Assembly: GCA_902406115.1 (NCBI GenBank)
Contig: CABPCL010000004.1
Coordinates: 23,995 to 87,994 of the forward strand
Direction of reading: 5' to 3'
Length of the DNA: 64,000 bases
Source of the DNA: an uncultured Clostridium sp.
GTDB lineage: Bacteria; Bacillota; Clostridia; TANB77; CAG-508
Below, one piece after another: positions 12,904-17,046 of this stretch (position 1 is its first letter; each line of letters opens with the position of its first letter). The notes beneath the pieces were generated by a model, which was not told the origin of the DNA, searched no databases, and saw only the letters and a list, made by a program, of their open reading frames with translations. The position numbers were made by a program, and so were the translations under genes.

Positions 12904-13905
12904 ATGGGGAAAGTTAAATATTTATTAAAAAGAATCAGAAAATTAGATTACAAAAATATGTTTAGAATTGCTAAAAAAATTAGCAAAAAAACAAATAGAA
13001 ACTATATTGGGATCATACTAGATATGGTAAGATGTGGATTAAAATACCAAGCAGGTTACTATGATTATCAAGAATTTGAATTTTATAACTTAAATAAAAA
13101 GGAGAGAGAAACATATTTAACAAGAGGAAAGAATAATGAAATTATAAAAAGATTTAATGATAAATCAAAATTTCATATATTTGAGAATAAAGATGAAATG
13201 TATGCAACTTTTGATAAGTTCATAAAAAGAAAATGGATGAAGTTAAATGAAAACAATGAGGAAGAATTTATTAAATTTATCAAAGATAATAAAAACGTAA
13301 TTGTAAAACCTATTGATGGAGAAGGCGGACATGGAATTGAGAAGTATACATATACAACAGATGAAGAAGCAAAAAAAATATATAAATCTCTATTAGAACA
13401 TAATCAGTTAATAGTTGAACAATGTATTGTTCAAAACAAAGAATTAGACAAATTATATGATAAATCTGTTAACTCATTAAGAATGTTTACTTTTTACAAA
13501 GATGGAAAATCATATTTCCTACAAGCAGTGTTAAAAATAGGTAATGGTGGTGTTGTTGACAATTTTTCAAGTGGTGGAATGTACACTTATGTAAGTGAAG
13601 AAGGATATGTATATGCTGAGGCGATTGATAAAGAAGATAACATATACTTTGAACATCCTGTATCAAAAACTAAAATAGTTGGATTTGAAGTGCCTTTGTT
13701 TAAAGAAGCTGTAGAACTAGTAAAGGAAGCTGCAAAAGTAGTACCAGAAATTGCATATGTTGGTTGGGATGTTGCAATAGGAGAAAAAGAACCAATTATA
13801 ATTGAAGGAAATTGCTTCCCAGGAGTTTTTCAAGTAAAACCTAGTTTGTGTAGCGAAAAAAGAGGATTAATACCAAAATATAATGAAATAATGAAAATAT
13901 TTTAA
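12904..13905 (+). CDS. ATP-grasp ligase of the sugar-transfer-associated ATP-grasp family, paralog 1
   Basis: 333 aa; VIVKPIDGEGGHGIEK ATP-grasp Gly-rich loop; C-terminal IIEGNCFPG (ExN..PG) motif; roughly 40% identical to the next ORF. Confidence 0.7.
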   Translation: MGKVKYLLKRIRKLDYKNMFRIAKKISKKTNRNYIGIILDMVRCGLKYQAGYYDYQEFEFYNLNKKERETYLTRGKNNEIIKRFNDKSKFHIFENKDEMYATFDKFIKRKWMKLNENNEEEFIKFIKDNKNVIVKPIDGEGGHGIEKYTYTTDEEAKKIYKSLLEHNQLIVEQCIVQNKELDKLYDKSVNSLRMFTFYKDGKSYFLQAVLKIGNGGVVDNFSSGGMYTYVSEEGYVYAEAIDKEDNIYFEHPVSKTKIVGFEVPLFKEAVELVKEAAKVVPEIAYVGWDVAIGEKEPIIIEGNCFPGVFQVKPSLCSEKRGLIPKYNEIMKIF

Positions 13906-13949
13906 TTGTAAATTTTATCTTTTCGTTTTGTGACTTTTTTGTGAAACCG

Positions 13950-13979
13950 TTGAAATCAGGTGATCAAAAAAGGTATAAT
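13950..13979 (+). promoter_or_regulatory. putative sigma-A promoter for the second ATP-grasp gene (TTGAAA-18-TATAAT)
   Basis: ttgaaa at 13950-13955, tataat at 13974-13979. Confidence 0.4.
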
Positions 13980-14000
13980 GCAAAAAACGAGAGGTAGAAT

Positions 14001-15053
14001 ATGGAAAATATAAAATATATTATAAAAAGATTAAAATCATTAGACTGGAAGAAAATGAATGAAAAGATTTGTTCAATTAACAAAAAAACAGGTATACCTA
14101 AAGTGAAAATTTTGGTAGATATGCAACAATGCGCTGTTAAATATGGCGCAGGGTATATGGATTATGACCTGTTTGAAATGTACAATCTTAACGCAAAACA
14201 AAGAAACACATATCTTACAAGAGGAAGAAATAATGATCTTGTTACAAAATATTGTGACAAATCATACCTTCATTATTTTCAAAATAAAGATGAATTTAAT
14301 GAAAGATTTCAAAACTACTTGAAAAGAGATTGGATTTCTGTTAATAAAGAAAACAAAGAAGACGTAATTAAATTTATGCAAAAACATAAGGGATTTATGG
14401 CAAAACCAATATCTGGATCATGCGGACACGGAATTGAAAAGATAAACATAAATAATTATGAATCAATAGATGAAGTATATGAAGAGCTTACAGAAAATAA
14501 TGGGAAATACGAATTAGAAGAAATTATAAAACAACATCCAGATGTAAGCAAAATATATCCTGATTCAATAAATACCATAAGAGTTGTAACTATTGTAACA
14601 ACTAGAGATGGAAAATCAATTTTGAGTATTCCTGAAGAAGAAAGAAAAAATATAGAAATTGTCCCACATGTTGTTTCAACATATCTAAGAATAGGTAATG
14701 GAAAATGCGTAGATAACTTCAATAGTGGGGGAATGGTTACTCCTATAAATGAGGAAAATGGAATTGTAACACAAGCAGCTATTGATAAACAAAAGAATCT
14801 ATATGAAATTCACCCTAAGACAGGAACTAAAATTAAAGGTTTCCAAATACCATATTGGAATGAAGTAATAGATCTTTGTAAAAAAGCTAGTAAAGAAATA
14901 CCAGAAATGGGGTATACTGGTTGGGATGTAGCAATTACACCAGACGGACCTCTATTTGTAGAAGGAAACGAATTTCCAGGACATGATATATATCAGTTAC
15001 CAGAGCATACACCTAATAAAATAGGAATAATGTCAAAATTCCAATTAAACTAA
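14001..15053 (+). CDS. ATP-grasp ligase of the sugar-transfer-associated ATP-grasp family, paralog 2
   Basis: 350 aa; FMAKPISGSCGHGIEK loop; C-terminal FVEGNEFPG motif; paralogous to 12904-13905. Confidence 0.7.
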   Translation: MENIKYIIKRLKSLDWKKMNEKICSINKKTGIPKVKILVDMQQCAVKYGAGYMDYDLFEMYNLNAKQRNTYLTRGRNNDLVTKYCDKSYLHYFQNKDEFNERFQNYLKRDWISVNKENKEDVIKFMQKHKGFMAKPISGSCGHGIEKININNYESIDEVYEELTENNGKYELEEIIKQHPDVSKIYPDSINTIRVVTIVTTRDGKSILSIPEEERKNIEIVPHVVSTYLRIGNGKCVDNFNSGGMVTPINEENGIVTQAAIDKQKNLYEIHPKTGTKIKGFQIPYWNEVIDLCKKASKEIPEMGYTGWDVAITPDGPLFVEGNEFPGHDIYQLPEHTPNKIGIMSKFQLN

Positions 15054-15112
15054 ATTATAAAAATAAATTATTATATATAATATAAAAATCTTAAGAAGAG
15101 GTAGAAATAGTC

Positions 15113-16771
15113 GTGAAAGAAAATAAATTGGGAAAACACACAAACTCTTTTATGAAAAATGTAATTATACTAATGTGTTCAGAAATATTAGTAAAAGTTC
15201 TAGGAATGATATATAAACTAGTAATTACAAATATGGAAGGGTTTGGAAATACAGGAGCAGGTTACTATGCATCAGGATATCAAATATATGCTTTACTTTT
15301 AACACTCTCATCAATAGGTATCCCTAGTGTTATATCAAAACTAGTTTCTGAAAGATTAGCAATAGGAGATAAAACAGGTGCACAAAGAATATTTAAAATA
15401 GCATTGAAATTTTTTGCAACATTGGGACTTATTTTTTCAATCTTACTATACTTTGGTGCAGAATTTATTGCAAATAACATACTAAATGTGCCAGATACAG
15501 TATATGTAATGAGAGTATTAGCGCCAGCAATTGTATTCGTTTCAATTTCAGCAGTATTAAAAGGATATTTTGCAGGACAGCAAAATATGAAACCTACAAG
15601 TGTGGCGCAGACATTAGAGCAATTTCTAAACTGTGTTTTATCAATTACATTTGTATATGCATGTATTGGAAAAGACGCATATATTATGGCAGCGGCAGGA
15701 AACCTATCTACAACACTAGCAATAATGATTACATTTGTATACCTTATCAATTATTATAAAAGAAATAAACTAGAAATAAATCCAGAACAGAGATCACCAG
15801 AGAGAAGAAAAACTAATAGAGAATTATTAAGAACGATTCTTGGAATCTCAATACCAATAACAATAAGTTCAATTATTTCAGTTATAAGCTCAGTTATAGA
15901 TACTGCAACTGTAAGTAATTGTATACAATATGCATATCAAAACTCGGGAATGACAAAAGAAGCACTAGAAACATTAGCAATGACAAAAGCAGGTATTCTT
16001 TCTAAAATAGATACATTGGTAACATTTCCACTTGCAATAAATACTGCTTTTTCTACAGCACTAGTTCCTTCAATATCTGAGTCGATGGCAAAGAAAGAAT
16101 ATGGAGTAGCTTCAAAAAGATTATCATTTTCTATATTTACATCTATATTAATAATATTCCCTTGTGCTATGGGATTCATGTTTCTAGCAAGTCCAATATT
16201 AAAAATGATTTACCCATCAGCATCTGATGGAGCATTAATATTACAATTATCATCTATATCTATGATATTTACGGCATTAAATCAAACAGTTAATGGAGGA
16301 TTGTATGGATTAAATTTACCAAAAGTTCCTGTGGCAGCACTAGGAGTTGGGGTTGTTGCGAAAACAATATTAAATATTATATTGGTAAGTAATCCAACAA
16401 TTAATATAGCAGGTGCTTCAATAGGATCTATTGTATGTCAGATATTAGCATTCTTAATAGCTTTTAGAGTATTGAATATGAAATTGAAAATAAAATTTGA
16501 TCCAAAGAAAAACATTATAAAGCCAGCTATTGCGGCAGTTGTTATGGGAATAATAGTATATTTCGTTCAATATCTACTTAATATGTTTATGGGCAACATA
16601 TTAAGCACACTTCTAGCTATAATAGTAGGAGTAGGAGTCTATGGATTAGCAATTATATTCATGAATGTGTTGTCTAAAGAAGATATTTTAATGATACCTT
16701 TTGGAACAAAGATATATAATATATTAGTTAAGTTACATTTATATAAAGAAGAAGGAGAACCACTAAGATAA
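15113..16771 (+). CDS. MOP-superfamily polysaccharide/lipid-II flippase (SpoVB / Wzx / MurJ-like polysaccharide biosynthesis protein)
   Basis: 552 aa; about 14 predicted TM helices with the MOP exporter pattern; GTG start. Confidence 0.75.
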   Translation: MKENKLGKHTNSFMKNVIILMCSEILVKVLGMIYKLVITNMEGFGNTGAGYYASGYQIYALLLTLSSIGIPSVISKLVSERLAIGDKTGAQRIFKIALKFFATLGLIFSILLYFGAEFIANNILNVPDTVYVMRVLAPAIVFVSISAVLKGYFAGQQNMKPTSVAQTLEQFLNCVLSITFVYACIGKDAYIMAAAGNLSTTLAIMITFVYLINYYKRNKLEINPEQRSPERRKTNRELLRTILGISIPITISSIISVISSVIDTATVSNCIQYAYQNSGMTKEALETLAMTKAGILSKIDTLVTFPLAINTAFSTALVPSISESMAKKEYGVASKRLSFSIFTSILIIFPCAMGFMFLASPILKMIYPSASDGALILQLSSISMIFTALNQTVNGGLYGLNLPKVPVAALGVGVVAKTILNIILVSNPTINIAGASIGSIVCQILAFLIAFRVLNMKLKIKFDPKKNIIKPAIAAVVMGIIVYFVQYLLNMFMGNILSTLLAIIVGVGVYGLAIIFMNVLSKEDILMIPFGTKIYNILVKLHLYKEEGEPLR

Positions 16772-17046
16772 TGTTAAAATACTTTATTATTTACTTAATT
16801 ATAATAAATGTTATTGCATTTATTGCAATGTATATAGATAAAAAACGTGCTAAAATGGGAAAATGGAGAATTAAAGAATATACATTATTTATTCTTGCAC
16901 TCATAGGTGGAAGTATTGGATCAATAGCTGGAATGTATATATTCAGACATAAAACAAAAAAAGCAAGATTTGTTATTGGATTTCCGGCAATATTAATAAT
17001 ACAAATATTACTAGGATTTATGATATATACCGATTTTATAAAATAA
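16771..17046 (+). CDS. DUF1294 small membrane protein
   Basis: 91 aa; two TM helices with a KxxxxKxRIxExxL linker typical of DUF1294; start overlaps the flippase stop (TAATG), so translationally coupled. Confidence 0.7.
   Translation: MLKYFIIYLIIINVIAFIAMYIDKKRAKMGKWRIKEYTLFILALIGGSIGSIAGMYIFRHKTKKARFVIGFPAILIIQILLGFMIYTDFIK

Follow-up and report, generated by a model that had tools for sequence, protein, structure and literature searches.

Tandem PF14397 ATP-grasp ligases encoded with a MurJ-architecture flippase in an uncultured gut Firmicute: a candidate module for modification and export of a cell envelope precursor

Introduction

Why would two paralogous ATP-grasp ligases be encoded side by side, directly upstream of a membrane flippase? 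This arrangement occurs in a 64,000-nucleotide stretch of DNA from an uncultured Clostridium sp. (GenBank assembly GCA_902406115.1, contig CABPCL010000004.1, positions 23,995 to 87,994; hereafter termed the window), in which the two ligases, designated AG1 and AG2, are followed by a flippase of the MOP superfamily and a small DUF1294 membrane protein. The original prediction for this locus was that amino acids or other carboxylates are ligated onto a cell-wall, cortex or surface-polysaccharide precursor. Here, we provide evidence that the unit is probably a module for the modification and export of a cell envelope precursor. That AG1 and AG2 decorate the peptide stem of a lipid-linked peptidoglycan precursor with amino acids or amides, and that the co-encoded flippase then exports this precursor, stands at about an even chance on this evidence. 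A lipid-linked precursor is favored because ligases of the same family are fused to MurT, because operons with gatD, flippase and PAP2 genes recur, and because the unit itself is devoid of glycosyltransferase and sugar-nucleotide genes.

Results

AG1 and AG2 are predicted to be active ATP-grasp ligases

AG1 (333 amino acids; positions 12904..13905, plus strand) and AG2 (350 amino acids; positions 14001..15053, plus strand) both matched the Pfam family PF14397 (ATPgrasp_ST) far above its gathering threshold of 31.4 bits, with a score of 169.3 bits for AG1 (E 1.3e-49, profile positions 3-276 of 278) and 169.0 bits for AG2 (E 1.6e-49, positions 2-274 of 278). The two proteins were 42% identical over their full length (E 7e-96), with AG2 carrying an insertion of ~16 residues relative to AG1. 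The hallmark motifs expected of ATP-grasp enzymes were present in both, comprising a glycine-rich loop (IVKPIDGEGGHGIEK in AG1 and MAKPISGSCGHGIEK in AG2) and a C-terminal motif (EGNCFPG and EGNEFPG, respectively). The original description of a tandem pair of paralogous ATP-grasp ligases of ~340 amino acids, resembling the sugar-transfer-associated family, was therefore accurate.

The AlphaFold2 model of AG1 (pLDDT 88.9, pTM 0.87) yielded 411 PDB matches at E<=1e-3 in a Foldseek search. The top structural matches were Ddl, RimK, LysX/ArgX and PsnB, with E values of 1e-8 to 1e-6 over ~250 columns of the 333 residues. Since the model matches these enzymes, the ATP-grasp fold of AG1 is confidently predicted, and AG2 is expected to share it given its full-length identity to the modeled paralogue. 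An alignment of AG1, AG2, a third family type found in relatives (AG3), two MurT fusion proteins described below and three further members identified K135 (VKP/AKP), G142 in GxGGxG, K147, E172, R193, D289, E301 and N303 as invariant. By motif analogy to Ddl and RimK, we take these residues to represent the ATP-binding lysine, the flexible loop and the Mg-binding D...E-x-N signature. Because this catalytic set is invariant, both AG1 and AG2 look active.

In the model, the N-terminus of AG1 (residues 1 to ~105-107) was entirely helical, with no Rossmann-like pre-ATP-grasp domain. The N-terminal 76 residues lie outside the Pfam model, yet are conserved. Within the first 110 residues of AG1, there were 29 lysines and arginines as compared with 13 aspartates and glutamates, and no transmembrane segment was found. 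Such a basic domain could bind peripherally to an anionic membrane or to a pyrophosphate lipid. Collectively, the sequences and the model suggest that both ligases are active, join carboxylates to amines and form part of a distinct PF14397 clade with a conserved basic helical N-terminal domain.

Curated models gave little further resolution. The NCBIfam model TIGR02291 (RimK-related alpha-L-glutamate ligase-like) matched the ligases partially, at 37.5 and 48.6 bits, without reaching its cut-off of 314; the glutathione-synthetase models of the same collection matched far below threshold, and Pfam returned weak YheC/D-like ATP-grasp matches. A sequence search of the PDB detected no homologue of AG1, AG2 or the flippase.

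Ligases of the same family are fused to MurT and encoded with gatD

A profile search of 1.84 billion cluster representatives recovered 11,591 family members, 2,072 of them at E<=1e-30. Two of these proteins, P0390 (788 amino acids) and P0436 (786 amino acids), consist of an N-terminal PF14397 domain followed by Mur_ligase_M and MurT_C domains. Among NCBIfam models, the two named lipid II isoglutaminyl synthase subunit MurT fitted them best and were covered almost from end to end; the scores of the fusions lay under the very high cut-offs of these models, as did that of the stand-alone MurT encoded in locus L037. P0390 and P0436 were only 43% identical over 785 residues, and the fusion of ATP-grasp ligase to MurT is therefore old and conserved. 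The ligase parts of the fusions were 35-42% identical to AG1 and AG2, a distance comparable to that between AG1 and AG2 themselves. Each fusion protein was found on two contigs, which in the case of P0436 came from two different sources.

The genes surrounding the fusions extended this association. In locus L089, the fusion gene is followed by gatD (4-nucleotide overlap), a flippase gene and a PAP2 gene (11-nucleotide overlap) whose product is undecaprenyl-diphosphatase-like, and the flippase is 37-42% identical to flippases encoded beside AG1 in loci L043 and L050. In L090 and L091, which derive from two independent sources, the order is flippase, fusion gene, gatD, fba and murA. Stand-alone ligases showed the same coupling: L030, L033 and L037 contain a tight murT-gatD-AG3 operon with gaps of 2-29 nucleotides and AG1 adjacent, and in L038 and L039 AG1 abuts gatD-murT. 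Thus, ligases of this family are genetically coupled to lipid II enzymes by both fusion (P0390, P0436) and operon (L089, L090/L091, L030/L033/L037, L038/L039). MurT/GatD takes lipid-linked rather than UDP-linked precursors and amidates their D-Glu residue (PMC4155827).

Other multidomain arrangements were found in the family. Tandem fusions of two ATP-grasp domains were present among its long members. Locus L097 contains an array of three adjacent PF14397 genes (positions 2119-6690, plus strand; 395, 352 and 761 amino acids) with a total of four ATP-grasp domains, followed downstream by genes for an extracytoplasmic function sigma factor and an RsgI-like anti-sigma factor; such an array could assemble a multi-residue product. 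Protein P0393 (1564 amino acids) combines two PF14397 domains with a PGA_cap domain (CapA-like, poly-gamma-glutamate capsule) and BspA-type leucine-rich repeats, an architecture which hints that some family members act on a poly-amino-acid or surface polymer. The contexts of P0405, P0461 and P0485 lay on short contigs and were uninformative.

The flippase is predicted to have a MurJ-like architecture

The flippase (552 amino acids, GTG start; positions 15113..16771, plus strand) matched the Pfam families Polysacc_synt (E 3e-25, its best match) and MurJ (PF03023; E 8e-21, 74.6 bits against a cut-off of 27.4), in agreement with its first description as a SpoVB/Wzx/MurJ-like exporter. Its AlphaFold2 model, of moderate confidence (pLDDT 78), contained 14 long helices. 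When this model was compared with the PDB using Foldseek, MurJ gave the best matches (528-550 of 552 columns, TMq 0.70-0.74), and 12-helix MATE transporters and WzxE aligned over only ~460 columns. Membership of the MOP superfamily, the 14-helix architecture and a full-length structural match are therefore features that it has in common with MurJ of Escherichia coli and Thermosipho africanus and with the MurJ (YtgP) and SpoVB proteins of Firmicutes. It differs from them in being only ~16% identical to the solved MurJ structures and in falling under the NCBIfam cut-offs for both spore_V_B (TIGR02900, its best model; 253.8 bits over the full length, cut-off 372.3) and murJ_mviN (TIGR01695; 66 bits, cut-off 235.55). 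Given the full-length structural match to MurJ and the sub-cut-off NCBIfam scores, the protein is predicted to be a MurJ-architecture member of the SpoVB/MurJ-like group, without being a certified equivalog of either. Only unnamed metagenomic proteins were among the matches of a homology search with the flippase.

The SpoVB match raises the hypothesis that the flippase is a SpoVB orthologue and that the ligases modify spore-cortex peptidoglycan precursors only during sporulation. The weak YheC/D-like matches of the ligases fit this scheme, as the YheC/D family is spore associated in Bacillus, and in 13 loci of another lineage AG1 lies 3' of spoIIP and a small 111-amino-acid open reading frame (ORF). 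The flippase score is nonetheless well under the SpoVB equivalog cut-off, and flippases of this kind share operons with murT/gatD and PAP2 genes, which serve vegetative wall functions. The unit begins 33 nucleotides 3' of the glycyl-tRNA synthetase gene glyS, and this gap contains no terminator-like site; none of the ~45 annotated genes of the window was recognized as a sporulation gene, and the genomes of relatives are small, a closed example measuring 1.57 Mb. A sporulation-specific module was the least supported of the alternatives and is very improbable.

Ligase and flippase genes are neighbors in some relatives of the host

In a scan of one genome per species, 532 relatives were detected, and the best 80 loci, each of 20 kb, were analyzed. 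Studies of the mouse, rabbit, rumen and human gut supplied the nearest genomes, which were metagenome-assembled genomes (MAGs) labeled as uncultured Clostridia, Clostridiales or Bacilli and included Clostridium sp. CAG:452 and the closed MAG. The host is a small-genome uncultured gut Firmicute and no classical Clostridium. AG1-type ligases, 53-78% identical to AG1, were encoded in all 80 loci; AG2-type ligases were confined to the clade closest to the host and to L029, L035 and L036. AG3-type ligases, although ~30% identical, still belong to PF14397 (E 2e-39). In a plasmid collection, only two distant relatives were found.

Flippase genes were present in 18 of the 80 loci and murT-gatD in 8, always as immediate neighbors of a ligase gene. 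Within the close clade, ligase and flippase genes were adjacent in all 15 loci despite a shuffled gene order (glyS-flippase-AG1-AG2-flippase, glyS-AG2-flippase-AG1, glyS-AG1-flippase or glyS-flippase-AG1), with one or two copies per gene, and 13 related species preserved an order of glyS followed by flippase and ligase genes. The two functions were paired again in three loci of another lineage, as tyrS-flippase-AG1 with gaps of 0-1 nucleotide in L040 and L043, and as AG1-flippase in L050; the flippases of these loci were only 25-26% identical to that of the window (26% for L043). These findings upheld the proposed association of the ligases with the flippase.

Several observations weigh against a role of AG1 and AG2 in the modification of a lipid-linked peptidoglycan precursor. 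AG1 lay among unrelated housekeeping genes in 54 of the 80 loci; these contexts included argJBDF with rex and a ClC channel gene, SMC with spoIIP and the 111-amino-acid ORF, and a P-type ATPase with a HAD hydrolase and an alpha/beta hydrolase. Homologues of AG3 (56-59% identity) were located beside htrA/ychF, 3' of truA, or between mnmE and mnmG. Because many AG1 and AG3 contexts consist of unrelated core genes, neighborhood alone is a noisy guide in such compact genomes. Aminoacyl-tRNA synthetase genes recur beside PF14397 genes and could point to another function: glyS in the window and in 13 relatives, tyrS in L032, L040, L043, L069 and L082 (four types of context), hisS in L096, where it precedes a triple ATP-grasp fusion, and argS in L090/L091. 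A distant family member, 29% identical, resides in an exopolysaccharide (EPS) cluster on a Lactococcus garvieae plasmid (L095). In the window itself, murT and gatD were not found within the 64 kb, and the flippase falls under the curated cut-offs of both the SpoVB and the MurJ models. Finally, a literature search found no paper on PF14397 or the sugar-transfer associated ATP-grasp family.

Some of these observations would be accounted for if the neighbors were coincidental, with the flippase acting as an ordinary lipid II flippase and AG1 and AG2 serving an unrelated cytoplasmic role such as RimK-like protein tailing, a translation-related modification, or small peptide or solute synthesis. 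Most AG1 and AG3 contexts are housekeeping or translation loci, several adjoining glyS, tyrS, hisS, ychF or mnmE/mnmG; AG1 lies 3' of argJBDF in one rumen lineage; and the ligand of the basic N-terminal domain could be RNA or an acidic protein instead. RimK and LysX are among the solved structures closest to AG1 (TMq ~0.45 over ~250 columns), and the weak NCBIfam matches are to a RimK-related model. RimK and LysX/ArgX are, however, only 13-17% identical to AG1, target the C-termini of proteins, and possess the standard N-terminal domain, which is missing from AG1. Coincidence is also hard to reconcile with the MurT fusion, which is conserved in two diverged proteins with gatD next in line and a flippase gene alongside in both cases, or with an adjacency to flippases that arose in at least three arrangements involving flippases of only 26% identity. 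Further, within the 20-kb loci, flippase and murT-gatD genes were found nowhere but immediately beside a ligase gene. The recurrent adjacency to aminoacyl-tRNA synthetase genes leads us to keep a RimK-like or translation-linked cytoplasmic function under consideration, but as an improbable explanation of the locus.

The adjacency of PF14397 genes to aminoacyl-tRNA synthetase genes spans lineages, orientations and arrangements, and is commoner than we would expect by chance. The neighboring glyS was considered as a sign that glycine is a substrate and was rejected as evidence, since tyrS or hisS takes the position of glyS elsewhere and AG1 is still highly conserved. A second recurrent context was seen in rumen Ruminococcus/Acutalibacteraceae MAGs, in which AG1 is directly 3' of, and co-oriented with, argJ-argB-argD-argF (L045-L048, L053, L055, L056, L060, L061, L067 and L068), with rex and a ClC channel gene downstream in most. 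This arrangement could reflect lineage-specific synteny or a link to ornithine or arginine supply.

The EPS cluster of L. garvieae, which holds a nucleotide-sugar dehydrogenase gene and several glycosyltransferase genes, bears on a different alternative: that the ligases use an amino acid to amidate a carboxylate, such as that of a uronic acid, on a lipid-linked secondary wall polymer, a teichoic-acid-like polymer or an EPS unit, and that the flippase is a Wzx-type exporter. The name and description of PF14397 and the best Pfam match of the flippase, Polysacc_synt, accord with this proposal, as do two GT8 genes and acyltransferase genes 4 kb downstream of the unit, a Wzy_C gene at 44998-46293, and a gene for an SLH-domain protein 3' of one relative (L092). 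Wzx/Wzy-dependent polysaccharide loci carry a priming transferase, glycosyltransferases and Wzy beside the flippase. No glycosyltransferase, priming transferase, Wzy polymerase or sugar-nucleotide gene was found between glyS (11485) and ppdK (18320), nor did any such gene adjoin AG1 in the best 80 loci; the GT8 genes start at 21063, past ppdK, and the Wzy_C gene is 28 kb away. In addition, the partners in the fusions and operons are MurT/GatD, enzymes whose substrate is lipid II, and the flippase has the 14-helix architecture of MurJ and not the 12-helix architecture of WzxE. Polysaccharide genes usually differ between strains, and the unusual conservation of AG1 across orders and its core-genome contexts would be unexpected for genes of this kind. 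Because a distant member sits in an EPS cluster, decoration of a glycopolymer is still a live rival for PF14397 as a family; for the ligases of the window, it is unlikely.

The transcription unit and other genes of the window

The window (~28% G+C) has the gene order ychF, sortase (minus strand), pyrH, frr, uppS, cdsA, rseP, polC, glyS, AG1, AG2, flippase, DUF1294, a decayed pilin-like gene, ppdK and two GT8 genes, and proteins and gene order identical to these were found on metagenome contigs (L001). The glyS gene (positions 11485..12870, plus strand) encodes a glycyl-tRNA synthetase of 461 amino acids, with the tRNA-synt_2b and HGTP_anticodon domains called in the identical locus L001. It is probably the first gene of a co-oriented and cotranscribed unit glyS-AG1-AG2-flippase-DUF1294, and is not a functional part of the ligase/flippase module. 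A terminator-like hairpin followed by a T-run (positions 17073..17096, plus strand; stem of 10 pairs, loop of 4, tail ATTTTTGT) probably marks the end of the unit. A sigma-70-like promoter match, TTGAAA-18-TATAAT, was present in the spacer between AG1 and AG2 (positions 13950..13979, plus strand; 11 of 12 positions), and a promoter at this site is only a possibility. As the number of promoter-like sites in the region (51) was no higher than in shuffled sequence (50.7), the promoter scan was not used as evidence. A search of positions 11050-18350 against Rfam detected no element, T-box included, either at gathering score or with the limit relaxed to E<=1. Nor did a racemase gene, such as the aspartate racemase gene expected with an Asl-type D-aspartate ligase, adjoin AG1 or AG2.

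The last gene of the unit (positions 16771..17046, plus strand) encodes a membrane protein of 91 amino acids with three hydrophobic segments, which matched DUF1294 (PF06961) at 90.8 bits (E 6.6e-26, positions 1-55 of 55, threshold 25 bits). The flippase stop and the DUF1294 start overlap by one nucleotide in the sequence TAATG, preceded by AAGGAG, which makes translational coupling plausible. The identity of the protein and its coupling to the flippase were therefore in line with the original prediction; its standing as a conserved part of the module was not. In the close clade, DUF1294 was near the module in 12 of 15 loci, at times moved to 3' of polC. It was never beside a ligase or flippase gene in other lineages. 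Since it was absent from all of the ligase/flippase/MurT arrangements outside the close clade, DUF1294 was rejected as a core component, and it is a loosely attached, clade-specific small membrane protein. Nothing functional on DUF1294 was found in the literature searched.

Downstream of the unit, positions 17386-18118 (plus strand) contain a type IV pilin/pseudopilin-like gene in pieces. The frame encoding GITLIALVVTIVILVILATISLNLLF lacks an in-frame start, and an ATG-started ORF in another frame reaches it, resembling a +1 frameshift just 5' of the glycine of the prepilin cleavage site. Two ORFs of this region, orf96 and orf88 (weak DUF6273 match), form a single ORF of 196 amino acids in L002 and are split likewise in L001, L003 and L004. 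Past ppdK, positions 21063-24556 (plus strand) hold envelope-lipid or glycolipid-type genes, namely a GT8 gene, a GT8 gene fused to an acyltransferase (624 amino acids) and another acyltransferase gene. Beyond these are a stand-alone LPG_synthase_TM protein with an MprF-like transmembrane domain (28257-29279, plus strand) and two adjacent large membrane proteins with weak DUF6541 matches (31703-35135, plus strand). On the opposite strand, positions 29376-31223 encode an asparagine-synthase-family glutamine amidotransferase (Asn_synthase and GATase_7) that may be plain AsnB; AsnB1 and AsnH of this amidotransferase family amidate meso-diaminopimelic acid or D-Asp in the peptidoglycan of other Firmicutes (PMC4155827). 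Across the whole window, Rfam gave a single match above gathering score, a class A bacterial RNase P RNA (39617-39965, plus strand; 282 bits).

The sole other MOP gene of the window (47499-49551, plus strand) encodes a MATE-type transporter carrying a fused cytidylate-kinase-like domain (Cytidylate_kin2). The frame of the first 96 codons differs from that of the rest, suggesting that the gene is frameshifted or a pseudogene. As a frameshifted MATE-type efflux gene with a cytidylate-kinase-like domain, the candidate at 47776-49551 was rejected as a second glycan flippase. The gene adjoins a tyrosine recombinase/integrase gene (46312-47301, minus strand) and the gene for the O-antigen-ligase/Wzy-like Wzy_C protein (44998-46293, minus strand), and this region may be a mobile-element junction.

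Discussion

The ligation of a substituent onto an envelope precursor, as originally predicted, gained support from this analysis and was narrowed towards lipid II by the fusions and operons with MurT; nothing was found in favor of a cortex-specific or sporulation role at this locus. We propose that the ligases would act at the cytoplasmic face of the membrane on lipid II, the substrate class of MurT/GatD. Each ligase would spend ATP on an acyl-phosphate that is then converted into an amide, so that the peptide stem gains an amino acid or amine. The added group would be a side branch, a residue of a cross-bridge or a modification of a free carboxylate. With two paralogues, two successive or alternative additions would be possible, and the modified precursor would then be translocated by the flippase, a predicted 14-helix protein of the MurJ/SpoVB type. 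In this scheme we infer that the substrate is lipid II, and not a UDP-linked precursor or another lipid-linked glycan, and the position modified and the residue added are inferred likewise.

Cytoplasmic tailoring of a peptidoglycan precursor by an ATP-grasp ligase, followed by MurJ-type flipping, is already known. The ATP-grasp ligase AslA adds the D-Asp side chain to the lysine of the stem peptide; in the cytoplasm, Asl enzymes convert the carboxylate of the amino acid to an acyl-phosphate and couple it to the stem peptide (PMC4155827). Compared by description, the Asl ligases (AslA of Lactococcus lactis and Aslfm of Enterococcus faecium) would be the closest functional analogy to the role proposed for AG1 and AG2, which differ from them in their unique helical basic N-terminal domain and in their genetic links to the lipid-linked stage through MurT/GatD and the flippase. 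Asl falls in another ATP-grasp family, and its reported substrate is the nucleotide precursor.

MurT/GatD resembles the proposed system in modifying the stem peptide of a lipid-linked precursor before flipping, and is coupled to the PF14397 ligases genetically and by fusion. It is likewise ATP dependent, through an acyl-phosphate. In contrast to AG1 and AG2, MurT has a Mur-ligase fold and not an ATP-grasp fold, and the group added is ammonia supplied by GatD and not an amino acid. A further likeness is to the Fem/MurM/Bpp enzymes, which add cross-bridge residues to the stem peptide of the precursor, often stepwise through paralogues (FemX, FemA, FemB), as might be compared with the tandem AG1-AG2 pair and the L097 array. 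As far as the cited account goes, Fem enzymes are GNAT-like and draw on aminoacyl-tRNA rather than on ATP and free amino acids (PMC2655667). Neither AG1 nor AG2 is homologous to the Fem enzymes.

PF14397 members of EPS loci, such as that of L095, share the Pfam family; they are at most 30% identical to AG1 and, unlike AG1 and AG2, are embedded among genes for glycosyltransferases and sugar-nucleotide enzymes. TupA-like and Cj1438-type amidoligases belong to the same superfamily. For these amidoligases and for the EPS-locus members, attachment of amines or amino acids to surface glycopolymers has been predicted or shown. The names that sources give to the ligases, "sugar-transfer associated ATP-grasp" and "hexapeptide transferase", would be incorrect for this clade if the proposed function is right. 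No characterized family member was found in the PDB, among curated NCBIfam names or in the literature searched, and searches of that literature for ATP-grasp enzymes together with MurT/GatD or lipid II gave only pseudomurein work and reviews. The enzyme family, its fusion to MurT and its pairing with a dedicated flippase thus appear to be undescribed.

Peptidoglycan fine structure governs cross-linking, susceptibility to lysozyme and antibiotics, and recognition by host innate immunity. We know of no description of this fine structure in these uncultured small-genome gut Firmicutes. The MurT fusion, together with the gatD/flippase/PAP2 operons, provides a concrete functional hypothesis for this PF14397 clade and yields candidate enzymes for the ATP-dependent, tRNA-independent branching or substitution of lipid II. 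We suggest tentatively, and at rather less than even confidence, that the ATP-grasp ligases of the AG1/AG2/AG3 clade form an unrecognized class that modifies lipid II and is widespread among uncultured Clostridia and Bacilli of the gut. These ligases would act side by side with MurT/GatD, to which they are sometimes fused, would work with a dedicated MurJ-type flippase and would produce tRNA-independent branches or substituents on the stem peptide. If so, these ligases would constitute a new class of enzymes for cell wall biosynthesis, and their hosts would have a peptidoglycan chemotype and a biosynthetic route that are so far undescribed. Arrays of two to four ATP-grasp domains would then build multi-residue bridges, as an ATP-driven counterpart of FemXAB.

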